DNA of 46,881 nt from a virus. Lineage: Duplodnaviria > Heunggongvirae > Uroviricota > Caudoviricetes. Shown in pieces: positions 2,555 to 18,796 of the stretch; within the stretch, counting starts at the first letter, position 1; each line of letters opens with the position of its first letter. The position numbers and the translations under genes are program-made. The DNA lies in the IMG/VR virus record IMGVR_UViG_3300018065_000012; one strand, given 5' to 3'. The notes beneath the pieces were generated by a model that was not told where the DNA came from, ran no database searches, and saw only the letters and a program-made list of their open reading frames with translations.

Positions 2555-2583
2555 GTATTGATTGGATTGATCTTTTACAAACG

Positions 2584-2658: not shown

Positions 2659-2665
2659 AGACTGA

Positions 2666-2688: not shown

Positions 2689-2689
2689 G

Positions 2690-3062: not shown

Positions 3063-3095
3063 TTGGCTAAATATAAAAGGAAGTGGGGGTGCGTC

Positions 3096-3632: not shown

Positions 3633-3638
3633 TTTTCC

Positions 3639-3667
3639 TTGAAAATGTTCTTTGACAATTGTATAAC
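3639..3667 (+). promoter_or_regulatory. sigma70-like promoter TTGAAA-N17-TATAAC (copy 2), upstream of tRNA cluster 1
   Basis: TTGAAA 3639-3644, 17-nt spacer, TATAAC 3662-3667. Same motif family as 2526. Confidence 0.55.
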
Positions 3668-3680
3668 GTAATAGCGGAAT

Positions 3681-3757
3681 TGGAGCTGTAGCTCAACTGG
3701 TCAGAGTATCGGACTGTCGATCCGAGGGTTGCGGGTTCGAGTCCCGTCAGCTCCGCC
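3681..3757 (+). tRNA. tRNA-Asp(GUC)
   Basis: Acceptor GGAGCTG/CAGCTCC, D GCTC/GAGT, anticodon stem TCGGA/TCCGA loop CUGUCGA, T-arm GCGGG-TTCGAGT-CCCGT, discriminator G, CCA. Confidence 0.8.
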
Positions 3758-3765
3758 AGATGACA

Positions 3766-3793
3766 ACGCAGTGGGGAATTCCCCACTGCTTTT
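3766..3793 (+). promoter_or_regulatory. inter-tRNA hairpin CAGTGGGG-AATT-CCCCACTG followed by CTTTTGG (processing or terminator-like)
   Basis: Perfect 8-bp stem with a 4-nt loop between two tRNA genes. Confidence 0.4.
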
Positions 3794-3869
3794 GGGCGGT
3801 TAGTTCAGTTGGTAGAACGCATGGATCACAACCATGAGGTCACTGGTTCAAGTCCAGTACCGCCCACCA
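3794..3869 (+). tRNA. tRNA-Val(CAC)
   Basis: Acceptor GGGCGGT/ACCGCCC, D GTTC/GAAC, anticodon stem CATGG/CCATG loop AUCACAA, T-arm ACTGG-TTCAAGT-CCAGT, A73, CCA. Anchored to ORF-track ATG 3834. Confidence 0.8.
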
Positions 3870-3877
3870 GAAACAAA

Positions 3878-3954
3878 CGGAAGGTTAAGGTATTTGATTC
3901 CGAGTCCTTGGTTGAATTATATGCGTTATGCGCCAGCTTTGGGTTGGCCTTCCG
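3878..3954 (+). other. 77-nt element enclosed by a perfect 7-bp helix CGGAAGG/CCTTCCG (structured RNA or degenerate tRNA-like)
   Basis: tRNA-sized unit with an acceptor-like closing helix, but the interior does not fold into a canonical cloverleaf. Confidence 0.25.
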
Positions 3955-3964
3955 TGAATAAAAT

Positions 3965-4036
3965 CCAGCACGCTTCAGTGATGGGATACTTCTCCATTTT
4001 AGGAAAAAAAGCAACCTGTCGCGTTTTTTGGTGCTG
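3965..4036 (+). ncRNA. Bracketed tRNA-array element A (minimal copy of the module-bracketed family)
   Basis: 5' module CCAGCAC-GCTTCAGTG...GATACTTC, 3' module GCGTTTTTTGGTGCTGG. Terminal helix CCAGCAC/GTGCTGG. No tRNA-like insert. Confidence 0.55.
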
Positions 4037-4041
4037 GTTTA

Positions 4042-4117
4042 TGGCCCTGTGATGTAATTGGAAACATGTCAGGTTTTCAGCCTGATTTTTGGGGTTCGAG
4101 TCCCCACAGGGTCACCA
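4042..4117 (+). tRNA. tRNA-Glu(UUC)
   Basis: Acceptor GGCCCTG/CAGGGTC (G2-U71), D ATGT/ACAT, anticodon stem TCAGG/CCTGA loop UUUUCAG, T-arm TGGGG-TTCGAGT-CCCCA, A73, CCA. Confidence 0.8.
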
Positions 4118-4127
4118 AAAAATAATT

Positions 4128-4261
4128 CCAGTACGCTTCAGTGAAGAGATACTTCGACTTGTAATCGAGAGGTTGCGGGTTCGAGTCCCGTCGGTTTGCT
4201 TCGGCAAACTGTAGCTCAATTGGCAGAGCGCTAAATACCTCTTTGCGTTTTTTGGTACTGG
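4128..4261 (+). ncRNA. Bracketed element B carrying a circularly permuted tRNA-Thr(UGU)-like core
   Basis: Order in DNA: 5' module, anticodon arm TTCGA-CUUGUAA-TCGAG, variable AGGTT, T-arm GCGGG-TTCGAGT-CCCGT, acceptor 3' strand CGGTTTG, then C-TTCG-G cap, acceptor 5' strand CAAACTG, TA, D-arm GCTC-AATTGGCA-GAGC, G26, 3' module. The D-arm, anticodon loop and variable loop are identical to the genuine tRNA-Thr(UGU) at 12586. Confidence 0.55.
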
Positions 4262-4269
4262 AATTTTTC

Positions 4270-4346
4270 GGGGATGAAGACGAAGTGGACGAGTCACTGC
4301 CCTGTCACGGCAGAGTAAGCGGGTTCAAGTCCCGTCATTCCCGCCA
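4270..4346 (+). tRNA. tRNA-Asp(GUC), second divergent copy
   Basis: Acceptor GGGGATG/CATTCCC (G4-U69), 3-bp D-stem, anticodon stem CTGCC/GGCAG loop CUGUCAC, T-arm GCGGG-TTCAAGT-CCCGT, G73, CCA. Confidence 0.7.
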
Positions 4347-4355
4347 AGTTTACGT

Positions 4356-4430
4356 TCCGGCGTGGCCCAACGGTAGGGCAGCTGGCTGTTAACCAGTTCA
4401 TTGGAAGTTCGACTCTTCCCGCCGGAGCCA
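4356..4430 (+). tRNA. tRNA-Asn(GUU)
   Basis: Acceptor TCCGGCG/CGCCGGA, D GCCC/GGGC, anticodon stem GCTGG/CCAGT loop CUGUUAA, T-arm GGAAG-TTCGACT-CTTCC, G73, CCA. Confidence 0.8.
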
Positions 4431-4433
4431 TTT

Positions 4434-4520
4434 GCGCAAGTGCTGGAACAGGTAGACAGGCCAGTTTGAGGGACTGGTGTCCGAAAGGGCGTGGGAGTTC
4501 GAATCTCCCCTTGCGCACCA
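4434..4520 (+). tRNA. tRNA-Leu(GAG), class II
   Basis: Acceptor GCGCAAG/CTTGCGC, anticodon stem CCAGT/ACTGG loop UUGAGGG, long variable arm TGTCCGAAAGGGCGT, T-arm GGGAG-TTCGAAT-CTCCC, A73, CCA. Confidence 0.8.
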
Positions 4521-4628
4521 AATAATTTTTTGATAAAGTGCAATAGGAAAGGAGAAACAACAAATGCTTGATCTCACTTGTACCAAAGGGGGTCTGCCAT
4601 GTTAGAGCCTTAACGAAAGGAGCTAAAC

Positions 4629-5018
4629 ATGAGCAGAACCTTCAAGAAGTACCCACGGCACTGGTATAGGCGTCCAAGCGGACGTAAGAGAGCGCTGGTG
4701 AATGGGGTAAGGAAACGGGCTGTGCCTCCCGACCCTTACGATGATATTCACCCCGACAGACAGTGCTTTAGTGCAGACAAAGTTGGTTTGGAGTTGCACA
4801 AGTTGGGATGGAGCAACGAAAAGATTGCCAAGCGTTTGAGTTGGAGATTCAAAGTTCCTTACTTGGTGATTTGGCACAGCATTATCCCCGACAAACCGTT
4901 TGATTGGTGGTGGTCTTGCAAGTGTAAGGAATGCAATGAAAAATACCAAGCTTGGCGGGAGTGGCGCGGAGGAATGCGTCTTTATTCTTGGGATGAGTTG
5001 GCAGTGGAACGCGGCTGA
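4629..5018 (+). CDS. hypothetical protein (basic N-terminus, Trp/Cys-rich)
   Basis: ATG with AAAGGAG SD; 129 aa; no motif recognised. Confidence 0.5.
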   Translation: MSRTFKKYPRHWYRRPSGRKRALVNGVRKRAVPPDPYDDIHPDRQCFSADKVGLELHKLGWSNEKIAKRLSWRFKVPYLVIWHSIIPDKPFDWWWSCKCKECNEKYQAWREWRGGMRLYSWDELAVERG

Positions 5019-5036
5019 GACAAGGAAGAATAGCGG

Positions 5037-5119
5037 TGTGACGAAACTGGTAAACGTGCATGGCTTAGAACCATGTGCCCTTTGTGGGCTTGAGGGTTCG
5101 ACTCCCTTCACCGCTACCA
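5037..5119 (+). tRNA. tRNA-Leu(UAG), class II
   Basis: Acceptor AGCGGTG/CACCGCT, anticodon stem CATGG/CCATG loop CUUAGAA, variable arm TGCCCTTTGTGGGCT, T-arm GAGGG-TTCGACT-CCCTT, A73, CCA. Confidence 0.8.
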
Positions 5120-5135
5120 TTTGAGGAAAGAGCAA

Positions 5136-5894
5136 ATGACAGATATCATTGTTCTGACTCACAACAAGGAAGAGAAAACCTGTCGTTGTTTTGAATCCAT
5201 TGCGTTGAATACAAAAAATTATCGGGTGCTTTGGGTTGACAATGGCTCAGAAGAAGCAAGCATTCAAAAGGTTTTGCCGTTTGCTGAAAAGCTTGAAAAC
5301 TTTCGCTTGATGCGCAACAAGGAAAATGAAGGGTTTTCAAAAGGGGTCAATTGCGCCTTGCGTCTTTTCTTGTTTGACGGATTATCTGATCACCTTATCT
5401 TGCTGAACAATGACGTTGTTGTGACGAAAGGTTGGCTTGATCATTTGATTGCTGCGATGAAGAAATCAGGTTTGGATGCAATTGGCCCAGTGACATCAGA
5501 CAATTGTCAACAAAGCCTTGAAGCATTACGGCCTCAATTGAGTAGAAAATTGCCGGAGTTCACGGACGAAACGACAGAGGAAAAAGCGAGAATATTATAT
5601 GAGGACGCAGGTAGTGCAGTTTATCCGGTGACTTCAATCTTGACTTTTTTCTGTGTGTTGTTTCGCAGGGAAACGGTTGAACAAATCGGGTTGCTTGATG
5701 AAAACATTTTCGCCTACGGTGAAGATAACGATTATTGTGAGCGAATGAAACGCACGGGGAAGAAAATGGGATTAGCTGTTGGAATTTACGTTGAGCATGA
5801 TCACGGCGCAACGGCTCAGTTGTTTGGAGACAGCTGGAAAGAGAAACAAATGAAAAAGGCTTCGGCGTATATCCAGCAGAAATATAATCTTTAG
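5136..5894 (+). CDS. Family 2 glycosyltransferase (GT-A fold)
   Basis: IIVLTHN...VDNGS...LLNNDVVV... and YGEDNDYCERM (DxD/ED motifs typical of GT2). ATG 5136 with GAGGAAAG SD; the ORF-track frame opens at TTG 5121. Confidence 0.7.
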   Translation: MTDIIVLTHNKEEKTCRCFESIALNTKNYRVLWVDNGSEEASIQKVLPFAEKLENFRLMRNKENEGFSKGVNCALRLFLFDGLSDHLILLNNDVVVTKGWLDHLIAAMKKSGLDAIGPVTSDNCQQSLEALRPQLSRKLPEFTDETTEEKARILYEDAGSAVYPVTSILTFFCVLFRRETVEQIGLLDENIFAYGEDNDYCERMKRTGKKMGLAVGIYVEHDHGATAQLFGDSWKEKQMKKASAYIQQKYNL

Positions 5895-5981
5895 GCGTTG
5901 TGGTGAAACTGGCAGACACGCATGATTCAGGGTCATGTTCCCTTTTTGGGAGTGAGGGTTCGACTCCCTCCAACGCCACCA
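5894..5981 (+). tRNA. tRNA-Leu(CAG), class II
   Basis: Acceptor GGCGTTG/CAACGCC, anticodon stem CATGA/TCATG loop UUCAGGG, variable arm TTCCCTTTTTGGGAG, T-arm GAGGG-TTCGACT-CCCTC, A73, CCA. The first G overlaps the upstream stop codon. Confidence 0.8.
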
Positions 5982-5983
5982 TC

Positions 5984-6058
5984 GGCCCTATGGAGTAATC
6001 GGAAACTCACCAGATTCTCAGTCTGGAATTCAGGGTTCGAGTCCCTGTAGGGTCACCA
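5984..6058 (+). tRNA. tRNA-Glu(CUC)
   Basis: Acceptor GGCCCTA/TAGGGTC, D GAGT/ACTC, anticodon stem CCAGA/TCTGG loop UUCUCAG, T-arm CAGGG-TTCGAGT-CCCTG, A73, CCA. Confidence 0.8.
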
Positions 6059-6089
6059 GCTTCGGATTATGAATTGCTTAAAAGATAAA

Positions 6090-6166
6090 GGGCGATTAGC
6101 TCAGCTGGACAGAGCACTTGCTCGACAAGCAAGGGGTCAGTGGTTCGAGTCCACTATCGCCCACCA
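6090..6166 (+). tRNA. tRNA-Val(GAC)
   Basis: Acceptor GGGCGAT/ATCGCCC, D GCTC/GAGC, anticodon stem CTTGC/GCAAG loop UCGACAA (C33 is unusual), T-arm AGTGG-TTCGAGT-CCACT, A73, CCA. Anchored to ORF-track frames 6069/6118. Confidence 0.75.
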
Positions 6167-6177
6167 TTGTAGGAATC

Positions 6178-6255
6178 GGACGCGTAGCTCAGATTGGTCA
6201 GAGCACTTCTCTTACAAGGAAGGGGTCACAGGTTCGAGTCCTGTCGCGTCCACCA
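6178..6255 (+). tRNA. tRNA-Val(UAC)
   Basis: Acceptor GGACGCG/CGCGTCC, D GCTC/GAGC, anticodon stem CTTCT/GGAAG loop CUUACAA, T-arm ACAGG-TTCGAGT-CCTGT, A73, CCA. Confidence 0.8.
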
Positions 6256-6273
6256 AATGAAAGGCGGTGGAAA

Positions 6274-6507
6274 ATGGAAAACAAGGCGCTACCAAAGATC
6301 AAACTACGGGCCGTAAAAGAACCACAAAAAGAAAAGGCTCCAAAGAACACGTATTTGCTCACCATGCGCTTTCCAATCACCGCACTTGACGATGTTGAAG
6401 CGCGCGAACGTGCTTGGAAGCATATGAAGTTTCATAACTTTGTTAAGCTTGATGCAAAGCTTCAACGTGTTCGTGACAAGAAGGCACCGGAGAAAGTAAA
6501 TCTATGA
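6274..6507 (+). CDS. hypothetical protein (77 aa, Lys-rich)
   Basis: ATG 6274 after the tRNA. The ORF-track entry 6118-6507 begins inside tRNA genes, so the shorter start was chosen. Confidence 0.45.
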   Translation: MENKALPKIKLRAVKEPQKEKAPKNTYLLTMRFPITALDDVEARERAWKHMKFHNFVKLDAKLQRVRDKKAPEKVNL

Positions 6508-6932
6508 TTACAGTGACGTGTAATGGCTGTTTTGACGGGTTGCATCCCGGCCACTTGTTTTATCTTGGTTATTGTCGAGCGCAAGGTGACCGTTTGGTCG
6601 TTGGGATCAATTCCGATGAATACATAGCCAACAAGAAAAGAACAAAGCCGTATTTTGATGCTAAGCAACGTAAAGAAGTATTGCTGGCGCTCAACATTGC
6701 TGAAGATGTAATTGTGTTTGATGAACCGAATCCAAACGAATTCATCCGTAAGGTTCATCCGCAAGTGCATTGTACGGGTGAAGAATACGGCTATGAATGT
6801 GCTGAGTCAGTAATTTGTAATGAGCTTGGAATCAAATTGGTATTGGTTCCAAGAACGGCAATATGGTCAACGGGAAGTTTACCGTTGATTGGAATGAAAT
6901 GGGTTGCTGATTTTATGAATAGCGGAAAATGA
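6504..6932 (+). CDS. Nucleotidyltransferase of the HldE/RfaE domain II type (heptose-1-phosphate adenylyltransferase-like or cytidylyltransferase)
   Basis: VTCNGCFDGLHPGHLFYL is the HxGH nucleotidyltransferase signature as in RfaE/HldE and TagD. ATGA overlap with the upstream gene. Confidence 0.7.
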   Translation: MITVTCNGCFDGLHPGHLFYLGYCRAQGDRLVVGINSDEYIANKKRTKPYFDAKQRKEVLLALNIAEDVIVFDEPNPNEFIRKVHPQVHCTGEEYGYECAESVICNELGIKLVLVPRTAIWSTGSLPLIGMKWVADFMNSGK

Positions 6933-6946
6933 ACGTGGAGGGGAAA

Positions 6947-7306
6947 ATGGGCAAAAACTCGCAAGATAAAGGTGATTTGAGCAAGGTTATGATCATAGGT
7001 GCCTTGATGAAGAAAGACAAAAAGGTACTTGATACAATTGGAGAAAATCACAGATTTGATCTTGCGTTTTATGAAGAAGGGACAAGATGTTTCAAAACGG
7101 TTCAATGCAAAACAGGACAGTACAAAAACGGTTGCGTGATTTTTCCTACTTGTAGTGTTGTCAAGAATTCCAAAACTGGAAAACACGAAAGAAGGACTTA
7201 TAAAGGTCAAGTGGACTTTTTTTGGAGTGTATTGTCAAAAGAAAGAAAAGTGTTATCTTGTCCCGGAGAAAATTGCCGGTCAATCTTACACGTACTTAAG
7301 AGTTGA
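6947..7306 (+). CDS. hypothetical protein
   Basis: ATG 6947 with GGAGGGG SD (ORF-track frame from 6929); ends at 7306. Confidence 0.45.
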   Translation: MGKNSQDKGDLSKVMIIGALMKKDKKVLDTIGENHRFDLAFYEEGTRCFKTVQCKTGQYKNGCVIFPTCSVVKNSKTGKHERRTYKGQVDFFWSVLSKERKVLSCPGENCRSILHVLKS

Positions 7307-7363
7307 AAAACCAAAAGTCAAATGCAACAGGATAAACCGAGCTGAAGATTATGAATTATAATC

Positions 7364-7455
7364 GGGGGGATGGCTGAGCGGCTTAAAGCGCACGGTTGCT
7401 AACCGTGTGGGCGTTAGTAGCGTCTCGTGGGTTCGAATCCCACTCCCCCCGCCAT
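7364..7455 (+). tRNA. tRNA-Ser(GCU), class II
   Basis: Acceptor GGGGGGA/TCCCCCC, anticodon stem CACGG/CCGTG loop UUGCUAA, long variable arm, T-arm GTGGG-TTCGAAT-CCCAC, G73, CCA. Confidence 0.8.
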
Positions 7456-7460
7456 TCAAG

Positions 7461-7521
7461 GAGGGCTAAACCAGTGAGGTGTTAAAGCCTCCGCAGGTTC
7501 GAATCCTGTCCCCTCCGCCAC
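7461..7521 (+). pseudogene. 61-nt tRNA-like mini-element (acceptor helix, T-arm and CCA, but no D-arm)
   Basis: GGAGGG(C)...GCAGG-TTCGAAT-CCTGT-CCCCTCC-G-CCA. Interior has a GAGG-UGUUAAAG-CCUC hairpin. Too short for a tRNA. Confidence 0.3.
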
Positions 7522-7542
7522 TTTCAAAGAAAGGAGACAAGT

Positions 7543-7698
7543 GTGTCAGATGCCAAAAAGTCTCGCAAACTGGAACGCATCAAAAGGCGCATGGAAAACG
7601 TCGTTGACGACTGCGAATCGCTTTTGAAGATTTGCAATGGCGACTTGCGCATGAAAGAATTGCGGGACAAAGCACTTGAGTTTTACAAGCTTATTTAA
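7543..7698 (+). CDS. small helical hypothetical protein (51 aa)
   Basis: GTG start 5-6 nt after AAAGGAGA. ...SRKLERIKRRMENVVDDCESLLKICNGDLRMKELRDKALEFYKLI*. The stop abuts tRNA-Ser(UGA). Confidence 0.35.
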   Translation: MSDAKKSRKLERIKRRMENVVDDCESLLKICNGDLRMKELRDKALEFYKLI

Positions 7699-7789
7699 GG
7701 AAGGTTGGCAGAGTGGTTGAATGCGCTGGTTTTGAAAACCAGTGGGCGTCAAAAACGTCTCATGGGTTCGAATCCCATACCTTCCTCCA
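7699..7789 (+). tRNA. tRNA-Ser(UGA), class II
   Basis: Acceptor GGAAGGT/ACCTTCC, anticodon stem CTGGT/ACCAG loop UUUGAAA, long variable arm, T-arm ATGGG-TTCGAAT-CCCAT, U73, CCA. Anchored to ORF-track TTG 7705. Confidence 0.8.
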
Positions 7790-7803
7790 TATATGAAATT
7801 GAT

Positions 7804-7944
7804 ATGAGACAAAACTTGACTTTGACTGACCGGATTTGTATTGTTGTCTTTGTATCGTTGATGATTCTGATGCAACCATTATGGGTTGCGTTGAGAATTC
7901 TTCAATGGTTGATCCGGTTTTGGAAACCTGACTTTCATTGGTAA
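7804..7944 (+). CDS. small hydrophobic protein (46 aa, single TM helix)
   Basis: MRQNLTLTDRICIVVFVSLMILMQPLWVALRILQWLIRFWKPDFHW; in frame with ORF-track entry 7705-7944, starting after the tRNA. Confidence 0.4.
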   Translation: MRQNLTLTDRICIVVFVSLMILMQPLWVALRILQWLIRFWKPDFHW

Positions 7945-7947
7945 TGT

Positions 7948-8024
7948 GTGCCCGTGGCTCAAATGGATAGAGCACCTGACTACGGATCAGGAGGTTGTAG
8001 GTTCGAGTCCTACCGGGCATGCCA
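7948..8024 (+). tRNA. tRNA-Arg(ACG)
   Basis: Acceptor GTGCCCG/CGGGCAT, D GCTC/GAGC, anticodon stem CCTGA/TCAGG loop CUACGGA, T-arm GTAGG-TTCGAGT-CCTAC, G73, CCA. Confidence 0.8.
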
Positions 8025-8041
8025 ACTCAAAGGAATTGCAA

Positions 8042-8122
8042 ATGAAATTCTTTGATGGAACATGGGGATGTTTGATTTGGATTGTTTTGATAGGCGGTTT
8101 ACTGGTTTACTACTTGGCCTGA
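8042..8122 (+). CDS. tiny hydrophobic ORF (26 aa)
   Basis: AAAGGAA SD then ATG. MKFFDGTWGCLIWIVLIGGLLVYYLA*. Confidence 0.25.
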   Translation: MKFFDGTWGCLIWIVLIGGLLVYYLA

Positions 8123-8134
8123 TTGGAATTCTAT

Positions 8135-8211
8135 GGTGAGAGTAGCTCAGATGGTAGAGCGTCTGGTTGTGGTCCAGAAAGTCGCGGGTTCAAGTCCCGT
8201 CTCTCACCCCA
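8135..8211 (+). tRNA. tRNA-His(GUG) with genomically encoded G-1
   Basis: G-1 pairs with C73. Acceptor GTGAGAG/CTCTCAC, D GCTC/GAGC, anticodon stem TCTGG/CCAGA loop UUGUGGU, T-arm GCGGG-TTCAAGT-CCCGT, CCA. Confidence 0.8.
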
Positions 8212-8232
8212 ATATCAACGAAAGGATGAAAT

Positions 8233-8430
8233 TTGAAATGGATAATCTTAATCCTGTTCATGTATATGATAATTGCTATGATATTTTTTCTGCATGAATG
8301 TTCTAAAATACAAAAGCATGTTCCGCCAAAACGTCTTCGACACTGTTCGGTTTACAGGACGCTTCAATGGTTTGAAGCAATTGTTCGAAGCGTTTTATGG
8401 CCGGTTGTGTTGATATTGAATATCTTTTAG
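8233..8430 (+). CDS. hypothetical small membrane protein (65 aa, TTG start)
   Basis: ORF-track frame. Strongly hydrophobic N-terminus (WIILILFMYMIIAMIFFL). Confidence 0.3.
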   Translation: MKWIILILFMYMIIAMIFFLHECSKIQKHVPPKRLRHCSVYRTLQWFEAIVRSVLWPVVLILNIF

Positions 8431-8520
8431 GAAGGGTGGCTGAGCGGCTTAAGGCACTGGTTTCGAAAACCAGCGGACGCCAAAAGCGTCCCGTGGGTTC
8501 AAATCCCATCCCTTCCTCCA
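8430..8520 (+). tRNA. tRNA-Ser(CGA), class II
   Basis: Acceptor GGAAGGG/CCCTTCC, anticodon stem CTGGT/ACCAG loop UUCGAAA, long variable arm, T-arm GTGGG-TTCAAAT-CCCAT, U73, CCA. Confidence 0.8.
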
Positions 8521-8536
8521 TTGTAGGGAACAATCG

Positions 8537-8683
8537 ATGTTCGCTTGGTTTAAGAAATTGTTTTGTAAGAAAGAGGAAGCGCCAGAAGTAGTGGGCTTGA
8601 AAAAGTTTGAGCATCACGCTGAAATCACACTTGAATATAGCGATGGCAAAAGGGTAACACTTTGCGTTCGCAAAGGAGAATAA
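8537..8683 (+). CDS. small hypothetical protein (48 aa)
   Basis: ATG 8537. MFAWFKKLFCKKEEAPEVVGLKKFEHHAEITLEYSDGKRVTLCVRKGE*. Confidence 0.35.
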   Translation: MFAWFKKLFCKKEEAPEVVGLKKFEHHAEITLEYSDGKRVTLCVRKGE

Positions 8684-8758
8684 TCATGGATCATTCAGTT
8701 ACTTCCCGGAGCGGCGAAAGCACGATGGGGCGCAGGCCGCGTGAACCGGGAGGGATTT

Positions 8759-9016
8759 ATGAATCCAGAACGTCGGAGAAAAGGGTTGCTGAAGGTTTGG
8801 AAACTGATGCGGATTTGGCGTAATTATCATGATGGCGATAAAGAATACGCCAATGATGGGTTGATTGCGCAAGGGCATGAGAAAAACCGGAAGCCGTGCT
8901 CTTGTATGATGTGTTGCAATCGTCGCCGTTCAGGTTTTAGTAAGGGAAAAGAAAAGCTTACAAGACAGGAGCGAAAATCAGAAAACAGTTTCAAGGATCA
9001 ACTGGATGAATTGTAG
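8759..9016 (+). CDS. hypothetical basic protein with a Cys cluster (85 aa)
   Basis: ATG 8759 after GGGAGGG (ORF-track frame from 8741). CSCMMCC motif. An alternative out-of-frame 45-aa ORF at 8686-8823 with AAAGGAG SD overlaps it. Confidence 0.45.
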   Translation: MNPERRRKGLLKVWKLMRIWRNYHDGDKEYANDGLIAQGHEKNRKPCSCMMCCNRRRSGFSKGKEKLTRQERKSENSFKDQLDEL

Positions 9017-9104
9017 AGGGGTGTGGTAATTGGTAGCCAGCTGGTTTGGAACACCAGTGTGCCCTAATAAGGCATTGCGGGTTCAAATCCCGTCCCCTCT
9101 GCCA
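9015..9104 (+). tRNA. tRNA-Ser(GGA), class II
   Basis: Acceptor AGAGGGG/CCCCTCT, D TGGT/GCCA, anticodon stem CTGGT/ACCAG loop UUGGAAC, long variable arm, T-arm GCGGG-TTCAAAT-CCCGT, G73, CCA. Confidence 0.75.
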
Positions 9105-9118
9105 CTTTTGAACGATGC

Positions 9119-9194
9119 TGAGGGATAGCTCAATTGGTAGAGCACTTGGCTCTGGTCCAAGCGGTTGCAGGTTCGAATCCTGTTCCCTCTGCCA
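9119..9194 (+). tRNA. tRNA-Gln(CUG) (U1/U72 unpaired, G73)
   Basis: Acceptor TGAGGGA/TCCCTCT, D GCTC/GAGC, anticodon stem CTTGG/CCAAG loop CUCUGGU, T-arm GCAGG-TTCGAAT-CCTGT. Confidence 0.75.
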
Positions 9195-9199
9195 TTTTA

Positions 9200-9274
9200 T
9201 GGCCCGTAGTATAATTGGCAATACACAAGGTTTTGGTCCTTGTATTCCACGTTCGAGTCGTGGCGGGCCAGCCA
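9200..9274 (+). tRNA. tRNA-Gln(UUG) (U1-A72, G73)
   Basis: Acceptor TGGCCCG/CGGGCCA, D GTAT/ATAC, anticodon stem CAAGG/CCTTG loop UUUUGGU, T-arm CCACG-TTCGAGT-CGTGG, CCA. Confidence 0.8.
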
Positions 9275-9276
9275 AC

Positions 9277-9354
9277 GGGACGGTAGCTCAATTTGGTTAG
9301 AGCATCTGCCTTTTAAGCAGGAGGTTGTGGGTTCGAGTCCCACCCGTCTCACCA
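9277..9354 (+). tRNA. tRNA-Lys(UUU)
   Basis: Acceptor GGGACGG/CCGTCTC, D GCTC/GAGC, anticodon stem TCTGC/GCAGG loop CUUUUAA, T-arm GTGGG-TTCGAGT-CCCAC, A73, CCA. Anchored to ORF-track TTG 9325. Confidence 0.8.
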
Positions 9355-9372
9355 ATCTTGAAAGGAGGAACA

Positions 9373-10317
9373 TTGAAGTTTTTTGTAACAGGCGTCTATG
9401 GATTCATCGGCAGTTGCTTTGCAAGAATGTTGATTGAAGAAACTAATCACACGGTTGTTGGTTTTGGCCGGAACACTGATCAAAGAAATAAAGGCCGAAT
9501 CAAAAGCATTATCAGCAGTGAACGTTTCAACCTTATCAATGGCGACCTTGCTGGGGATATAAGTGGATTGCTTGAAGGCGTTGACGTTGTAGTTCATTTT
9601 GCGGCAAAGACTTTTGTGGACCATTCAGTGAAAGACCCTGAACCGTTTGTCCGCAGCAATATTATTGGCAGTTATCAACTTTTGGAACAAGCACGGATTT
9701 ACAAGCCCAAACGCTTCATTCACATTTCAACGGATGAAGTGTATGGCGCGTGTTTAGAAGGGTCTTACAGTGAGGATTCTCCGCTGAATCCGACAAATCC
9801 ATATTCAGCGACAAAAGCAGCTGCGGACGTTTTGGCAACAGGCTACTTTCATACGTACGGGGTGAACGTTATTATCACTCGCACTGAAAACAATGTTGGT
9901 CCGTTCCAGCACCCGCAAAAGGTTCTCCCGACGTTTGTAAGGAAAGCATTGGCTGGTGAGTTGTTGCCGGTTTACGGGGATGGAAAGCACGTAAGACAAT
10001 GGCTTCACGTAAAAGACCATTGCTATGCCGTTTTGCTTTTGATTGAAAAAGGACAGATTGGAGACATTTATCATATTGCTGGCTCAAAGGAATTGCAAAA
10101 CATCGAGTTGGCAAAAATGGTTTTGAAAATCTTGAAAAAGCCGGAAGACGCTTTTGAGTTTATTCCGGACAATGAGATTCGGCCCAATCATGACCGGCGT
10201 TATGCGATTGATTCATCCAAGCTTCGAGCGTTGGGTTGGGAACCAAAGTTTGATCGTGATGAAACCATTCGCAAAACGGTTGAATGGTACGTTAAAAATC
10301 AAAACTGGTTGGTGTAA
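9373..10317 (+). CDS. NDP-sugar 4,6-dehydratase (dTDP-glucose 4,6-dehydratase/RfbB-like, extended SDR)
   Basis: KFFVTGVYGFIGS Rossmann motif, YSATKAAAD (YxxxK), VRQWLHVKDHC. Start chosen at TTG 9373 after AAAGGAGG. The ORF-track frame (9325) opens inside tRNA-Lys. Confidence 0.75.
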   Translation: MKFFVTGVYGFIGSCFARMLIEETNHTVVGFGRNTDQRNKGRIKSIISSERFNLINGDLAGDISGLLEGVDVVVHFAAKTFVDHSVKDPEPFVRSNIIGSYQLLEQARIYKPKRFIHISTDEVYGACLEGSYSEDSPLNPTNPYSATKAAADVLATGYFHTYGVNVIITRTENNVGPFQHPQKVLPTFVRKALAGELLPVYGDGKHVRQWLHVKDHCYAVLLLIEKGQIGDIYHIAGSKELQNIELAKMVLKILKKPEDAFEFIPDNEIRPNHDRRYAIDSSKLRALGWEPKFDRDETIRKTVEWYVKNQNWLV

Positions 10318-10322
10318 ATTAT

Positions 10323-10399
10323 GGACGTATAGCTCAGTTGGTTAGAGCACTCGCCTGATAAGTGAGAGGCCGCTGGTTCGAATCCAGCTACGTCCACCA
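10323..10399 (+). tRNA. tRNA-Ile(GAU)
   Basis: Acceptor GGACGTA/TACGTCC, D GCTC/GAGC, anticodon stem CTCGC/GTGAG loop CUGAUAA, T-arm GCTGG-TTCGAAT-CCAGC, A73, CCA. Confidence 0.8.
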
Positions 10400-10603
10400 A
10401 CTTTATTTGCTCTCATAGGAAGGTCAGGACACCACTGCTGAAGGTAGGAGACAATTGTCGCTCGCACTACTGAGGGTGCAACACAAATAGGCTCCGTTTG
10501 GACTGGGTGAGCAGCAGGAAGGAGCGGGTTGTGGCAAAGATGAATGACAGATTGGAAAACAAAATCCTGCCTACTGTAGAATCTGTCGATGAGAGCATTT
10601 TGT

Positions 10604-10681
10604 GGGTGCGTAGCAAACATTGGTTTTGCAGCGGACTCTTAATCCGTCTTAATGTGGGTTCGATTCCCACCGCACCTACCA
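10604..10681 (+). tRNA. tRNA-Lys(CUU)
   Basis: Acceptor GGGTGCG/CGCACCT, D GCAA/TTGC, anticodon stem GCGGA/TCCGT loop CUCUUAA, T-arm GTGGG-TTCGATT-CCCAC, A73, CCA. Anchored to ORF-track 10498 frame. Confidence 0.75.
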
Positions 10682-10686
10682 ACTTT

Positions 10687-10762
10687 GCTCCCGTAGCTCA
10701 GCTGGACAGAGCGGGACTTTCCTAAAGTTCAGGTCGCAGGTTCGAATCCTGCCGGGAGTACC
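10687..10762 (+). tRNA. tRNA-Arg(CCU)
   Basis: Acceptor GCTCCCG/CGGGAGT, D GCTC/GAGC, anticodon stem GGACT/AGTTC loop UUCCUAA, T-arm GCAGG-TTCGAAT-CCTGC, A73, CCA. Confidence 0.8.
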
Positions 10763-10765
10763 AAA

Positions 10766-11188
10766 ATGATGATTGAAGAAAAACATAAAGACCTTTTTAC
10801 AGTGAGTGATGATTATCACCTTGCTCATTGTATCGCTACTGACATGAGAATGGGCGCTGGAATTGCGTTGCCAATGCAAAAGAAATTTAGATTGAGGGCG
10901 AAAATAAGAAACAGCAACGAATCCATATTGAGTCCAACTTGTATTTTGACTGGTCGCGTTTTCAATTTGATTACAAAACGGCGCAGCAGCGGAAAGCCGA
11001 CCTATCAATCGCTTCAAGCAAGCTTAGTAAAGATGCGTGAAATCATAGAACAAAAAGGCGTTACAAAACTTGCAATGCCAAAAATTGGTTGTGGCCTTGA
11101 TCGTCTTAATTGGGCCGTTGTGCGTCAAATGCTTGAAGATATTTTTTATGGTTTGGAGATCGAAATACTGGTTTGCGTTTGGAAATGA
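10766..11188 (+). CDS. Macro domain protein (ADP-ribose binding or processing)
   Basis: HLAHCIATDMRMGAGIA ... VTKLAMPKIGCGLDRLNW match conserved macro-domain motifs. Confidence 0.6.
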   Translation: MMIEEKHKDLFTVSDDYHLAHCIATDMRMGAGIALPMQKKFRLRAKIRNSNESILSPTCILTGRVFNLITKRRSSGKPTYQSLQASLVKMREIIEQKGVTKLAMPKIGCGLDRLNWAVVRQMLEDIFYGLEIEILVCVWK

Positions 11189-11191
11189 AAT

Positions 11192-11267
11192 GGGGGATTA
11201 GCTCAGTTGGGAGAGCGTTTGACTGGCAGTCAAAAGGTCACGAGTTCGAGTCTCGTATCCTCCACCA
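11192..11267 (+). tRNA. tRNA-Ala(GGC) with G3-U70
   Basis: Acceptor GGGGGAT/ATCCTCC, D GCTC/GAGC, anticodon stem TTTGA/TCAAA loop CUGGCAG, T-arm ACGAG-TTCGAGT-CTCGT, A73, CCA. Confidence 0.8.
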
Positions 11268-11272
11268 CTTGT

Positions 11273-11349
11273 GCTCCCGTAGCTCAAATGGATAGAGTCC
11301 CTGTCTTCTAAACAGGATGTTGCAGGTTCGAGTCCTGCCGGGAGTGCCA
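11273..11349 (+). tRNA. tRNA-Arg(UCU)
   Basis: Acceptor GCTCCCG/CGGGAGT, D GCTC/GAGT, anticodon stem CCTGT/ACAGG loop CUUCUAA, T-arm GCAGG-TTCGAGT-CCTGC, G73, CCA. Confidence 0.8.
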
Positions 11350-11363
11350 ACTTGGAGAACAAA

Positions 11364-11555
11364 ATGGAATTCAGATGGTGGCCGTGCAGGTTGGCAAATG
11401 ATTTTTGTGAGTTGTTGAAAATTCCCGCATATGTTTTAGCATTGCCACTGAAACTGATTGAACATTATCAAGAGACGATTTGGAAAAATTACGCAACTCA
11501 ATCTGACCGGGCGTATACGACAACGGAAATTTCAGATGAAGATTTGGCGGTGTAG
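11364..11555 (+). CDS. hypothetical protein (63 aa)
   Basis: ATG 11364 (ORF-track TTG 11352). The stop lies inside the first 10 nt of the next tRNA. Confidence 0.4.
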   Translation: MEFRWWPCRLANDFCELLKIPAYVLALPLKLIEHYQETIWKNYATQSDRAYTTTEISDEDLAV

Positions 11556-11623
11556 CTCAGTCTGGACAGAGCATCGGATTCATACCCCGAAGGCCACTGG
11601 TTCGATTCCAGTCACCGCTACCA
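11546..11623 (+). tRNA. tRNA-Met(CAU) (initiator-like anticodon stem ...CCCGA; could be Ile2/k2C type)
   Basis: Acceptor GGCGGTG/CACCGCT, D GCTC/GAGC, anticodon stem TCGGA/CCCGA (A31/C39 mismatch) loop UUCAUAC, T-arm ACTGG-TTCGATT-CCAGT, A73, CCA. Confidence 0.7.
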
Positions 11624-11628
11624 ATTTT

Positions 11629-11716
11629 GGGCGAGTGGAGGAATTGGTATACTCGCGGGATTTAAAATCCCGTGGACTAATAGTCCATGAGGGTTCGAGT
11701 CCCTCCTCGCCTACCA
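11629..11716 (+). tRNA. tRNA-Leu(UAA), class II
   Basis: Acceptor GGGCGAG/CTCGCCT, 3-bp D-stem GAG/CTC, anticodon stem CGGGA/TCCCG loop UUUAAAA, variable arm TGGACTAATAGTCCAT, T-arm GAGGG-TTCGAGT-CCCTC, A73, CCA. Anchored to ORF-track ATG 11687. Confidence 0.8.
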
Positions 11717-11734
11717 CTTGACAGGAGAATTTCA

Positions 11735-12289
11735 ATGCCCAACGAGTATTTGTTTGAGTGCCGCGTTCCGAAACATTACTTTGTAACGTCTGGAGCAGGC
11801 CAAATAACGCAGGATGCGGGAGCTGATCATTATGAAACAGGTTCCTATGATTTGGCTTTGCTGGATGCTTCAATTGAGAACTTCAACGTTGTGAAGTATA
11901 CCAGTGTAGTCCCTAAAAATGCGGAAGAAATCCCTTTGGATGAAGCCAAAAAGTATTTCCGTCACGGCGCGGTGCTTGAATGCATCATGGCTCAAATGAA
12001 CGGCCCGCAAGGTGAACATCTTTGCGCTGGCGTAGGAAGATGCAAATGCAAAGTCAATGGAAGCTACATCGGTGGCTTTGCGGCTGAGTATGAAGGCAAT
12101 GCTTCGACAGAGAAAGCAGAAAAAATCCTTGAAAAAGATTTACAAGGCATTGTTGACAGGCGCTATGGAAAAAGTGGTGAAATGTTTGATCTTGAGTTCA
12201 CAATAAGAGATTTGGTTGTTGACGACGAATACGGCACTGTTTTGGCCGCTATTTGCTTTATCACGTACGAATTTCCGGTGATAGGATAG
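11735..12289 (+). CDS. Pyruvoyl-dependent arginine decarboxylase (PdaD)-like
   Basis: Recalled similarity to archaeal PdaD: VPKHYFVTSGAGQ (cf. NTVSLVAGSSEG), ALLDASIENFNVVKYTSVVP (cf. ALLNAGIGNVNLIRISSIMP, Ser-Ser self-cleavage region), AAEYEGNASTEKAEKIL (cf. IMEYEGKCSKKEAEK). ATG 11735 with GGAGA SD; the ORF-track frame begins inside the tRNA. Confidence 0.5.
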   Translation: MPNEYLFECRVPKHYFVTSGAGQITQDAGADHYETGSYDLALLDASIENFNVVKYTSVVPKNAEEIPLDEAKKYFRHGAVLECIMAQMNGPQGEHLCAGVGRCKCKVNGSYIGGFAAEYEGNASTEKAEKILEKDLQGIVDRRYGKSGEMFDLEFTIRDLVVDDEYGTVLAAICFITYEFPVIG

Positions 12290-12294
12290 AATGT

Positions 12295-12381
12295 GGCAGC
12301 GTGGTGAAATTGGTATACACGCGTGATTCAAAATCACGTCCGGGCAACCGGGTGAGGGTTCGAGTCCCTCCGCTGCTACCA
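12295..12381 (+). tRNA. tRNA-Leu(CAA), class II
   Basis: Acceptor GGCAGCG/CGCTGCT, anticodon stem CGTGA/TCACG loop UUCAAAA, variable arm TCCGGGCAACCGGGT, T-arm GAGGG-TTCGAGT-CCCTC, A73, CCA. Confidence 0.8.
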
Positions 12382-12388
12382 AACTAAA

Positions 12389-12595
12389 ATGAAAGACAAA
12401 AGCGTAATCCCAGAAGGCATTTATTGTCACGGCGTAAATGGCGTCTGCCCATATTGGTCCTCAAGGGAGGACAAACCAGAGCAGGAAAATGGATACTGTT
12501 CTTTTCTTGAAATGGGCGATTGGAACGATGAGCCTTTGACCCTTTTGTGGGATCAAGTGAAAGAATGCGGAATAAATGATGATTGGCCAACATAG
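12389..12595 (+). CDS. hypothetical protein (68 aa, Cys/Trp-containing)
   Basis: ATG 7 nt after the tRNA CCA. The stop lies inside the next tRNA. Confidence 0.45.
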   Translation: MKDKSVIPEGIYCHGVNGVCPYWSSREDKPEQENGYCSFLEMGDWNDEPLTLLWDQVKECGINDDWPT

Positions 12596-12661
12596 CTCAA
12601 TTGGCAGAGCAGGGCACTTGTAATGCTCAGGTTGTGGGTTCGAATCCCTCTGTTGGCTCCA
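12586..12661 (+). tRNA. tRNA-Thr(UGU)
   Basis: Acceptor GCCAACA/TGTTGGC, D GCTC-AATTGGCA-GAGC, anticodon stem GGGCA/TGCTC loop CUUGUAA, variable AGGTT, T-arm GTGGG-TTCGAAT-CCCTC, U73, CCA. Confidence 0.8.
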
Positions 12662-12677
12662 CTTCAAAGGGGAAATT

Positions 12678-13073
12678 ATGATTTGGATTTTTCTTATTGT
12701 TGCCGTTTATATTTTCATTGATGTTTGTATCCGACAACGCCCAAAAAAGGTTGATATATACAAGCAACATTTGATAGCAGACAGGGAACAAGCAGAAGAC
12801 ATTTCGAGAAAACGAGAAGCCATTTGGGAAAGGTCAAAGGAAAAGAGAGAAAAATACGAGAAGGAAATCAAAACACAACAAAAAATTGGGAGAAATCTTT
12901 TCAAGGCGTTTGAGCTGATTGGTTGGTTTCGAGACGAACATAACAGACGATGGATTACGCCTTGCGGTGTTTTAGAAGACGTTGAGATTTATTTTTCTAC
13001 GAAACTTTATGTTCATACAGCGATTTACCTTTTGAAGAAGAAAAACTTGTTTGCTGCCGTGGCTCAGTGGTAG
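12678..13073 (+). CDS. membrane protein (N-terminal TM helix, charged coiled C-terminal part)
   Basis: MIWIFLIVAVYIFIDVCI followed by a K/E/R-rich region. The last 21 nt overlap tRNA-Thr(GGU). Confidence 0.5.
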   Translation: MIWIFLIVAVYIFIDVCIRQRPKKVDIYKQHLIADREQAEDISRKREAIWERSKEKREKYEKEIKTQQKIGRNLFKAFELIGWFRDEHNRRWITPCGVLEDVEIYFSTKLYVHTAIYLLKKKNLFAAVAQW

Positions 13074-13127
13074 AGCACGTCCTTGGTAAGGACGAGGTCA
13101 TGGGTTCGAGTCCCATCGGCAGCTCCA
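13053..13127 (+). tRNA. tRNA-Thr(GGU)
   Basis: Acceptor GCTGCCG/CGGCAGC, D GCTC/GAGC, anticodon stem CGTCC/GGACG loop UUGGUAA, T-arm ATGGG-TTCGAGT-CCCAT, U73, CCA. Confidence 0.8.
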
Positions 13128-13167
13128 AGCCTTTATCACCCCGCTATTTACGTTATGCAAATCATGG

Positions 13168-13244
13168 GCCACCTTAGCACAATTTGGCGGTGCGCTGCTT
13201 TCGTAAGGCAGAGGTTCCCGGTTCGAATCCGGGAGGTGGCTCCA
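13168..13244 (+). tRNA. tRNA-Thr(CGU)
   Basis: Acceptor GCCACCT/AGGTGGC, D GCAC/GTGC, anticodon stem CTGCT/GGCAG loop UUCGUAA, T-arm CCCGG-TTCGAAT-CCGGG, U73, CCA. Confidence 0.8.
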
Positions 13245-17665: not shown

Positions 17666-18796
17666 ATGGGATTGTTTACAGCAGCACATTTCGTTCAAGT
17701 TGCGCCGTGTCGCAGTGGTTTGTACGAAACGACGCGTGAAATTTGCAAAGGACAAATTGAATTTCTGAATTGGGATGCCCGCATGGTAGACGTGACGGGC
17801 ATTTGCACGGCTGGCGGGAAACCGACAAAGAAAAAGGAAGAAAGAGGAGTTCCGCTTGCAAGCGTAAAATGGGCAAAAAAGAAAGCAGATGTTTTCTTTT
17901 TGCACACGGGAATTCCGACGAAAATAGAAGGTTCAAGACCAGCGCTTTACTTTGCTCATGGGATGCCGGAGTATACGTTTTATTCGCAAGTCATGCGCGA
18001 AGTTTCCCCGAGTGAAGCCATTCGGGAACAAAAGCTTAAAAACGCGAATCCGTTCTTTGGCAGTTGGGGTTTAATAGTTCAGATAGCCAAGAAAGACTGG
18101 ATGAAAGGTGCGGTCACCTTATGGCGAAGACATAAGCCATATTGGGAGCCATACTTTGAAAATGTCATTCTTGGAAATCACTTTTGTGATTTGGAACTGT
18201 TTAAGCCGGAAGGAGACAAGGCCGACTATGTTCAGCGGCCAGCAGAAAACGGCGGCTTGAATATTACTTTTGCCGATCATTGGCGTTACACGGCTTTCAA
18301 AGACCCGTTTCAAATATTGCATGGTGCCTATAAGTTTTGCAAGGAGACAAATTCGCGGATTCATTTATATGCCGTGCCCAAGGAAGAAGTAAGGGATATT
18401 CGTCACCCTTGGAATTCGATTATACACGGCGTCAGCGATGAACTGAAAGATACGATTGGTGGTTTTTATGCAGTCCACGCAGATATTGCTTCAGTTCATC
18501 GGGCAGCTGATTTATTGATTACGCCTTCTTGTGATGATACAAGAACAGTGATTGAAGCTTCGGCCTGTGGTTGTCCGGTCCTTGCAAGACATGGGACGGA
18601 AGCGGCAATTTTTCATTGTCGTATGGAAGACCCTGATGAGCTTTACAAGGCATTGAAAGACGTTTACTACAAGTTACAAGACGAGAAAAAGAAAAAGAGT
18701 ATAAAAGAACGATCAAGAGAATTGGTAACGCGCAACAACTTTTCATTGAAAGCTTGTGTGGAGAAGATCGAAACGGGGCTGGCTGAAGCCCTTTAA
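17666..18796 (+). CDS. GT-B fold glycosyltransferase (GT4-like)
   Basis: C-terminal domain with EASACGCPVLA (cf. the EAMACGxPVIA motif of GT1/GT4 glycosyltransferases); 376 aa. Confidence 0.55.
   Translation: MGLFTAAHFVQVAPCRSGLYETTREICKGQIEFLNWDARMVDVTGICTAGGKPTKKKEERGVPLASVKWAKKKADVFFLHTGIPTKIEGSRPALYFAHGMPEYTFYSQVMREVSPSEAIREQKLKNANPFFGSWGLIVQIAKKDWMKGAVTLWRRHKPYWEPYFENVILGNHFCDLELFKPEGDKADYVQRPAENGGLNITFADHWRYTAFKDPFQILHGAYKFCKETNSRIHLYAVPKEEVRDIRHPWNSIIHGVSDELKDTIGGFYAVHADIASVHRAADLLITPSCDDTRTVIEASACGCPVLARHGTEAAIFHCRMEDPDELYKALKDVYYKLQDEKKKKSIKERSRELVTRNNFSLKACVEKIETGLAEAL

Follow-up and report, generated by a model that had tools for sequence, protein, structure and literature searches.

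A stand-alone TARG1/OARD1-type macrodomain gene lodged between tRNA genes of an uncultured huge phage: a predicted ADP-ribosyl glycohydrolase with a possible counter-defence role

The DNA analyzed here (IMG/VR virus record IMGVR_UViG_3300018065_000012, class Caudoviricetes; 46,881 nt, hereafter “the window”) carries an open reading frame (ORF) for a macrodomain protein within an array of tRNA genes. The ORF (10766-11188, + strand) runs from an ATG to a TGA codon and encodes 140 amino acids, as established from the ORF listing and the sequence. An earlier annotation made from the letters alone (the “sequence-only reading”) had placed such a gene at this position, embedded among tRNA genes, and both the ORF and its setting proved to be real: the end of a tRNA-Arg(CCU) gene lies 2 nt before the ATG, and 3 nt separate the stop codon from a tRNA-Ala(GGC) gene. 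The ORF is far beyond chance, because its product matched human TARG1 with an E-value of 1.6e-28 in phmmer and 402 homologues (90% clusters) were found at E ≤ 1e-5. An identical protein in the same neighbourhood was present on metagenome contigs of up to 338 kb, which points to an uncultured huge phage as the source. A megablast search of the region against deposited phages matched isolated tRNAs only; none of the deposited genomes is therefore a close relative.

Sequence comparison and a predicted structure place the ORF product, as a stand-alone macrodomain, in the TARG1/OARD1 subclass. In the phmmer search of PDB sequences, human TARG1 (hTARG1; also OARD1 or C6orf130) was aligned to residues 9-136, and DarG macrodomains were reached only at E = 0.005-0.08. 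A family-profile search gave E = 1.3e-43 for TARG1 vs. 2e-8 for DarG. Global alignment with hTARG1 yielded 44% identity over the full length; residues 20-149 of the hTARG1 sequence used for this purpose agree with the phmmer alignment from the PDB. PHROG 335 (“phosphatase”, i.e. Appr-1-p processing) was matched at E = 1e-24. The Pfam Macro model (PF01661), which is dominated by MacroD-type sequences, scored 21.1 bits against a gathering cutoff of 22 and matched the C-terminal half only; many homologues that are 55-69% identical to the protein carry a precomputed PF01661 match.

The AlphaFold2 model, for which the alignment of homologues was used as input, had a predicted local distance difference test (pLDDT) score of 96.4 and a predicted template-modeling (pTM) score of 0.91, and it features six strands and four helices, in keeping with the three-layer alpha/beta/alpha fold of the macrodomain superfamily (PF01661, PS51154), which has a mixed six-stranded sheet and a cleft for ADP-ribose. 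When this model was compared to the PDB with Foldseek, TARG1 was the top match (template-modeling score (TM) 0.90, 1.6 Å, 42% identity), followed by the DarG macrodomains of Mycobacterium and Thermus (TM 0.82-0.83, ca. 20% identity) and, further down, by Poa1p (TM 0.73-0.75, 18-19% identity) and viral macrodomains. The best 50 of the 165 PDB matches (E ≤ 1e-3) were macrodomains except for 7d3y and the entries 4j4z, 4etk and 4etj, the last three being designed hydrolases on a macrodomain scaffold. In BFVD, the top viral matches were TARG1-like domains of eukaryotic viruses (37-40% identity), and assorted phage macrodomains came thereafter. TARG1 is the nearest macrodomain subclass both by sequence and by structure (TM 0.90 vs. 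0.83 for DarG). The sequence-only reading had named assignment to a different fold in profile searches as the outcome that would speak against it; sequence, profile and structure searches all returned a macrodomain of the TARG1/DarG (ALC1-like) class.

Active-site residues were located by means of the hTARG1 alignment. The adenine-binding Asp20 of hTARG1 corresponds to D9, the nucleophile Lys84 to K71, and Asp125, which resolves the intermediate, to D112. The catalytic residues of the hydrolase are thus intact, in agreement with the earlier proposal that the macrodomain motifs indicate ADP-ribose binding or hydrolysis. Both glycine-rich motifs quoted in that proposal (GAGIA and GCGLDRLNW; Table 1) are present; the spacing quoted as H..C....GAGIA was only approximate, the actual residues being H18-L-A-H21-C22-IATDMRM-GAGIA. 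In an alignment of 53 homologues (47-69% identity), 16 columns are invariant, among them G32, T70, K71, G108, G110, D112, L114 and W116; G30, I33 and A34 are at least 90% conserved. The published TARG1-type active-site pattern, TKx(30,35)Px[IL]GxGxD (PMC6397177), occurs at residues 70-112. It is also found in hTARG1, in 50 of the 53 aligned homologues and in 81 of 84 viral homologues, and it is absent from DarG fragments and from Simmy50 gp155, a phage protein of the AdfM family. Nonsynonymous divergence (dN) was 0.23-0.32 relative to homologues of 62-69% identity; synonymous divergence (dS) was saturated against every available homologue, and dN alone is reported. With dN in this range and dS saturated, the macro gene is under purifying selection.

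Table 1. The macro gene, its putative functional residues and the adjoining tRNA genes in the window
Feature	Position	Strand	Basis
Stand-alone TARG1-type macrodomain gene, predicted ADP-ribosyl glycohydrolase	10766..11188	+	phmmer, AlphaFold2, Foldseek, PHROG 335
GAGIA, residues 30-34; loop 1, glycine-rich, ADP-ribose-binding (hTARG1 G41-A45)	10853..10867	+	hTARG1 alignment
T70-K71; K71 corresponds to Lys84, the catalytic nucleophile of hTARG1	10973..10978	+	hTARG1 alignment
GCGLDRLNW, residues 108-116; diphosphate-binding GxG loop	11087..11113	+	hTARG1 alignment
D112, equivalent of hTARG1 catalytic Asp125	11099-11101	+	hTARG1 alignment
tRNA-Arg(CCU), CCA encoded	10687..10763	+	ARAGORN; Rfam tRNA, 64.3 bits
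tRNA-Ala(GGC)	11192..11267	+	ARAGORN; Rfam tRNA, 68.7 bits

The phage protein was compared to characterized macrodomains. With hTARG1 (PDB 4J5R, 4J5S and 2L8R) it shares the single macrodomain, an equal size, the Lys/Asp dyad, the adenine-binding Asp and the GxG loop; it differs in being phage-encoded, without a eukaryotic PARP context, and in having Ala24 at the position of TARG1 S35. Human TARG1 is a neurodegeneration-linked enzyme. Cellular homologues are 41-59% identical to the phage protein, and the bacterial TARG1-type proteins (FmTARG1 of Fusobacterium mortiferum and the Paenibacillus homologues) have the same active-site pattern. However, the gene for FmTARG1 adjoins an immunity-protein-51 gene and the Paenibacillaceae copies reside in a cassette of NADAR, PARG and TARG1-like genes, whereas the phage gene has no such partner and is flanked by tRNAs. 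SCO6735 (Streptomyces coelicolor) and yeast Poa1p belong to the same ALC1-like clade but are far more distant (5e3b, TM 0.70; Poa1p, TM 0.75; 16-19% identity). A Poa1p-like ADP-ribose-1''-phosphatase was ruled out as the closest relative, as Poa1p ranks below TARG1 and DarG in Foldseek.

Assignments to DarG and to AdfM were both rejected. The macrodomain of the DarG2 antitoxin (PDB 5M3E, 5M3I and 7OMU) resembles the phage protein in fold class and in the position of the catalytic Lys, but it is only ca. 20% identical, and the phage protein has neither a C-terminal DarT-binding domain nor an adjoining DarT. A DarG was taken to be a protein of ca. 330-400 residues that includes this C-terminal domain, compared with the single domain of 140 residues found here. 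The PADLOC DarG model was matched (E = 7e-14) over profile positions 1-142 of 329 only, i.e. the macro part; the NCBIfam DarG equivalog scored 45.5 bits vs. a cutoff of 250; and the flanks are tRNA-Arg and tRNA-Ala, not darT. AdfM of chimalliviruses (PhiKZ gp104, Goslar gp83, Asesino gp217) likewise consists of a single, phage-encoded macrodomain, belongs to the TARG1/DarG class and has the conserved catalytic Lys, but it is of the DarG type. A member of its family, Simmy50 gp155, was connected by tblastn with Goslar, Asesino and PhiKZ-like phages; its identity to the query is 26%, and its best PDB match is DarG (E = 1e-22) rather than TARG1 (E = 3e-6). The AdfM-type motifs tested were TVNxxGxMGKG, PTK and GxGNG; the query has instead AHCIxxDxxMGAGIA and GCGLDRL. 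The GCGLDRL shared by the query and TARG1 is replaced by GCGNGNL in Simmy50 gp155, and the position of Asp112 is occupied by G or N in DarG and in this AdfM-type protein. The rejection of AdfM rested on the low identity, the lack of an Asp equivalent, the failure of the TARG1 pattern in that type and the reciprocal searches. Because the query sides with TARG1 and Simmy50 gp155 with DarG in these searches, the phage TARG1-type and AdfM families form sister branches within the TARG1/DarG (ALC1-like) clade.

The family occurs widely in phages, above all in uncultured large ones. Representatives of 50% clusters numbered 3009 at E ≤ 1e-3, of which 1528 were at E ≤ 1e-10, and relatives were encoded on 300 IMG/VR stretches and on 159 stretches of species-representative prokaryote genomes. 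Members in cultured phages include Bacillus phage G gp437 (45% identity) and proteins of the Fusobacterium phages Fnu1, FNU2 and FNU3 and the Lactobacillus phages LP65 and LpeD. In both PHROG and GenBank, the family bears the label “phosphatase/Appr-1-p processing”.

The window contains 47 tRNA genes by ARAGORN, all on the + strand and confined to two arrays (2585-13244 and 33892-39571). The Rfam gathering score was reached by 46 of them; the ARAGORN tRNA-Trp at 34681-34752 had no Rfam match. They represent 44 distinct anticodons and all 20 amino acids, such that the decoding set of the two arrays is near-complete, and CCA ends are apparently encoded. The gene at 35953-36038 (+) was called as tRNA-Cys by ARAGORN (anticodon GCA, 86 nt) and as tRNA-Sec by Rfam (60.6 bits; gathering score 47). 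Its acceptor measures 9 bp, its D stem (with a tetraloop) 6 bp and its T stem 4 bp, and the variable arm is long. The window contains no canonical tRNA-Cys. This phage tRNA is similar to the selC* class of tRNA-Cys described from anaerobic bacteria (PMC5389517).

The meaning of the tRNA setting was assessed by sampling the neighbourhoods of homologues at 80 IMG/VR loci (43-63% identity, 28 lineages; loci of relatives are numbered with the prefix L). With ARAGORN, a tRNA gene was found within 500 bp of the homologue gene at none of the 80 loci and within 5 kb at five, and the homologues of phage G, Fnu1 and Simmy50 had no tRNA neighbours. The array setting was common to the closest relatives only (L095-L097, 65-69% identity): the macro gene lies 6 nt after a tRNA-Arg(CCG) in L095 and L096 (69% identity), and eight tRNAs lie near it in L097 (65% identity). 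A general functional link to tRNAs was rejected on these grounds, and the tRNA context is regarded as the history and genome layout of a phage lineage rather than as functional evidence. L095 is syntenic with the second array of the window (it has homologues of 35099-36308 and 38224-40104), but the macro gene of the window lies in the first array. Because the L095 copy thus occupies the counterpart of the second array, the macro gene has moved between arrays. In L095 (6001-6767), the macro gene runs into a YAcAr (SLOG-family) gene, stop and start codon overlapping in ATGA, and the pair follows tRNA-Arg(CCG); tblastn found no homologue of this YAcAr partner in the window.

The tRNA arrays behave as a plastic accessory-gene region. 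They also hold genes for a family 2 glycosyltransferase (GT2), a cytidylyltransferase, a sugar 4,6-dehydratase, a pyruvoyl-dependent arginine decarboxylase (PvlArgDC), an HNH endonuclease and a PD-(D/E)XK nuclease. The last two, at 3060-3632 and 6947-7306 (+), respectively, may be homing-type nucleases that add to the plasticity.

The only sequence resembling a Shine-Dalgarno (SD) element for the macro ORF is GGGAG at 10754-10758, which is located in the 3' strand of the acceptor stem of tRNA-Arg(CCU). Elsewhere in the arrays, ORFs with an SD of their own begin 16-18 nt past a tRNA, and several end 0-5 nt short of the following tRNA or overlap it by 1 nt. Such junctions were noted at 9355-9373, 10317-10323, 11717-11735, 12289-12295 and 5894, in addition to the two at the macro ORF (10687-10766 and 11186-11192), which represents the extreme of this punctuation. 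The tight spacing of tRNAs and ORFs suggests tRNA-punctuated transcripts, and maturation of the tRNA-Arg would leave a near-leaderless macro mRNA. Promoter and terminator scans showed nothing specific at the macro gene and no terminator-like site on the + strand between 10400 and 11900.

No single neighbour of the macro gene is conserved across the viral lineages, the most widespread being present in four of the 28; two themes recur. The first comprises nucleic-acid enzymes. An ATP-dependent DNA ligase is encoded directly upstream in several lineages, and DnaB helicase, AAA_24 proteins, DNA methylases and RNA ligase are found near relatives, as are an intein-containing RtcB (L009), a CCA-adding enzyme (L098), RlaP and Thg1. 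The RtcB (906-3299) of L009, a related huge phage, is accompanied by an EF-G-like protein (9843-11864), and translation initiation factor IF3 is encoded by another such phage (L097, 5260-5694). The second theme comprises enzymes of NAD and ADP-ribose (ADPr) metabolism. In a 205-kb phage, the second gene upstream encodes NADAR; in L091, a SIR2 gene (E = 2e-56) precedes the macro gene by 10 nt; a microbial PARG was located by BLAST 2.5-4 kb away in L041 and L050; and NAPRTase and isochorismatase domains are among the neighbours. The overlapping YAcAr/SLOG gene of L095 falls under this theme as well. A pooled Pfam scan of 129 neighbour representatives gave one PARP-catalytic domain, which was not placed at any locus; motif searches for it found SIR2 only. 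A possible NAD-salvage theme in the window itself was discarded: the matches of the CTP_transf_like ORF (6504-6932) were to sugar/alcohol-phosphate cytidylyltransferases rather than to NMNAT, and the AAA_28 ORF (40110-40646), inspected for the same purpose, had no PDB relative. DruA-like (Druantia) proteins directly adjoin the macro gene at two loci (L017, 3784-5001; L024, 5613-6293).

Among the cellular relatives, the clearest pattern was a tight, same-strand cassette in the order NADAR, microbial PARG and TARG1-like gene in Paenibacillaceae, with the macro gene in the third position, at 26-28 of 80 cellular loci (e.g. L110, 2557-4414; other Paenibacillaceae loci are among L111-L179). No transferase is among the conserved neighbours of this cassette. 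A literature search on a NADAR/PARG/macrodomain operon in Paenibacillus returned no paper naming both “NADAR” and “Paenibacillus”. NADAR acts on guanine-linked ADPr, and PARG on ADPr at the 2'-OH of RNA and at phosphate ends (PMC11833690, PMC13036486). These published specificities and that of TARG1-like enzymes complement each other, which fits a module for the detoxification of externally imposed nucleic-acid ADP-ribosylation.

From the features above, we infer a hydrolase activity, a nucleic-acid substrate and a counter-defence role for the phage protein. Human TARG1 and TARG1-like proteins hydrolyse ADPr linked to thymine in single-stranded DNA (ssDNA) and to uracil in RNA, and TARG1 itself takes DarT2-made ADPr off DNA in vitro (PMC13036486). 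TARG1-type enzymes strip ADPr from the phosphate ends of RNA and DNA (PMC11833690), and SCO6735 removes thymine- and uracil-linked ADPr (PMC11833690, PMC13036486). Two phage factors provide a precedent: the chimallivirus macrodomain AdfM removes DarT2 marks and neutralises DarTG2 (PMC13309987), and the phage NADAR AdfN erases DNA ADPr made by DarT1 and neutralises DarTG1 (PMC11825919). AdfN (an orphan antitoxin; T4 30.3) parallels the logic proposed here, in that a phage-borne eraser of DNA ADPr acts without a cognate toxin, but it has an unrelated fold and is specific for guanine-linked ADPr. Given the specificity of TARG1-type enzymes, the precedent of AdfM and AdfN and the NADAR, PARG, SIR2 and ligase neighbours of relatives, counter-defence through the removal of ADPr from nucleic acids is the best reading. 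There is about an even chance that the protein is a phage orphan eraser of base-linked (thymine or uracil) or end-linked ADPr that defeats DarT2-like host defences. The basic isoelectric point of the protein (9.5) is compatible with nucleic-acid binding and with such a role.

According to this model, the protein would be a catalytically competent stand-alone TARG1/OARD1-type macrodomain. By homology, Lys71 would attack C1'' of the distal ribose on an ADP-ribosylated substrate, and Asp112 would resolve the lysyl-ADP-ribose intermediate with release of free ADP-ribose. The adducts removed would be those placed on nucleic-acid bases by the ADP-ribosyltransferase (ART) defences of the host (DarT2-like or related), namely on thymine in ssDNA, on uracil in RNA and possibly on 5' or 3' phosphate ends. 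This would allow the phage to go on replicating and expressing its genes. The sequence-only reading had likewise suggested antagonism of ADP-ribosylation-based defences such as DarT as a plausible role; it is refined here in that the protein is of the TARG1 rather than the DarG/AdfM type.

Several observations weigh against a nucleic-acid eraser directed at host defences. No DarT-like or other ART gene was detected near the macro gene or among the window ORFs scanned, and in this phage it is surrounded not by replication genes but by tRNAs, sugar-nucleotide genes and a PvlArgDC. The substrate cannot be read from the sequence, since enzymes of the TARG1 type act promiscuously on O-acetyl-ADP-ribose, Glu/Asp-linked mono-ADPr and poly(ADP-ribose) (PMC6397177). 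In comparative-genomic surveys, small ADP-ribose derivatives have been argued to be the targets of most phage macrodomains (PMC9503650). AdfM, the phage factor that has been characterized, is a member of the DarG branch with an identity of only 26%. Finally, expression of the ORF is uncertain, as its SD-like sequence is buried in a tRNA.

The likeliest of the alternatives, though itself unlikely, is that the protein carries out housekeeping clean-up of small ADP-ribose derivatives instead of macromolecular adducts. Candidate substrates would be ADP-ribose-1''-phosphate from Tpt1/KptA-dependent RNA (tRNA) repair, O-acetyl-ADP-ribose from sirtuins, and ADP-ribose-derived immune signals or toxins. 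The ADP-ribose-1''-phosphatase Poa1p is a structural neighbour (TM 0.75), the family label in PHROG and GenBank is that of a phosphatase, and FmTARG1 is highly active on O-acyl-ADP-ribose (PMC6397177). RtcB, RNA ligase, RlaP, CCA-adding enzyme and Thg1 near relatives, the SIR2 gene directly upstream in L091, the YAcAr/SLOG gene overlap in the closest relative and the location inside tRNA arrays in the three closest phages are in accord with this alternative, as are the surveys that favour small-molecule targets (PMC9503650). However, KptA/Tpt1, 2H and RNA ligase were not found in the window, and the tRNA association is lost beyond the closest relatives (none of 80 loci with a tRNA within 500 bp). 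The protein is also far nearer to TARG1 (42% identity, TM 0.90) than to Poa1p (18-19%, TM 0.75), and both experimentally tested phage erasers (AdfM and AdfN) act on DNA adducts.

It is rather unlikely that the protein erases ADP-ribosylation of proteins, either by reversing host ARTs that modify Glu/Asp of phage or host proteins or by switching off a phage-encoded ART in a writer-eraser toggle for host reprogramming. The founding activity of TARG1 is the removal of Glu-linked mono-ADPr from proteins, FmTARG1 removes both mono- and poly-ADPr from proteins (PMC6397177), ARTs are common in jumbo phages, and a SIR2 protein as well as one with a PARP catalytic domain are encoded near relatives. On the other hand, the scanned ORFs of the 47-kb window included no ART, only one of the 129 neighbour representatives was PARP-like and it could not be assigned to a locus, and the partners that recur are enzymes of nucleic acids and erasers specific for these (NADAR and PARG).

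A further reading, quite improbable, is that the enzyme guards RNA rather than DNA. Here, a TARG1-type eraser would act on uracil-linked or phosphate-end ADPr of tRNA or mRNA against a still-undescribed RNA-ADP-ribosylating host defence, and it would be translated from a tRNA-punctuated transcript and coupled to tRNA processing. The coupling would arise from the location of the only SD-like sequence within the acceptor stem of tRNA-Arg(CCU). It is very improbable that the protein is a non-catalytic binder that sequesters ADP-ribose or a cyclic-ADPR-type immune signal in the manner of Thoeris sponges: macrodomains can be pure readers and the signal-bound macro domain of ThsA is a distant structural match (TM 0.74), but both catalytic residues are invariant across the 53 homologues, the TARG1 active-site pattern is intact, and identity to the ThsA domain is 11% vs. 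42% to TARG1.

With respect to the eraser of nucleic-acid ADP-ribosylation, the DarG-type branch (AdfM) is the only phage macrodomain branch that has been shown to be anti-defence, and the macro gene represents a second, TARG1-type branch. If DarT-type marks are indeed erased, orphan-eraser counter-defence would extend to a new enzyme lineage, and a compact 140-residue enzyme would be available for the biochemistry of thymine- and uracil-linked ADPr. No new category is opened by this finding: macrodomains are commonplace in large phages (present in 56% of jumbo phages; PMC9503650), and the counter-defence logic has been demonstrated for the sister branch. What is new is the TARG1 branch in phages and the unusual tRNA-punctuated slot.

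Other genes of the window were also noted. The PvlArgDC gene (11735-12289, +; E = 7e-32) lies between two tRNA-Leu genes and is present in the related phage L095 as well; phages do not usually encode this enzyme of polyamine synthesis. At the window edge (93-1103, +) there is a gene for a peptidase of the caspase family (Peptidase_C14, E = 3.5e-32). Sugar-nucleotide and glycosylation genes (GT2, sugar/alcohol-phosphate cytidylyltransferase, 4,6-dehydratase, GT1-like proteins and an epimerase) are scattered over 5136-5894, 6504-6932, 9373-10317, 17666-18796, 31064-32521 and 32636-33571, some of them inside the tRNA array. Six tandem paralogues of ca. 254 residues (21886-26499, +; 37-74% identical) weakly match the second domain of Mtd, and three of ca. 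411 residues (26820-30569, +; 57-63% identical) have a right-handed beta-helix. The two paralogue arrays, which have a single homologue in L095, look like diversified receptor-binding or tail-fibre modules.

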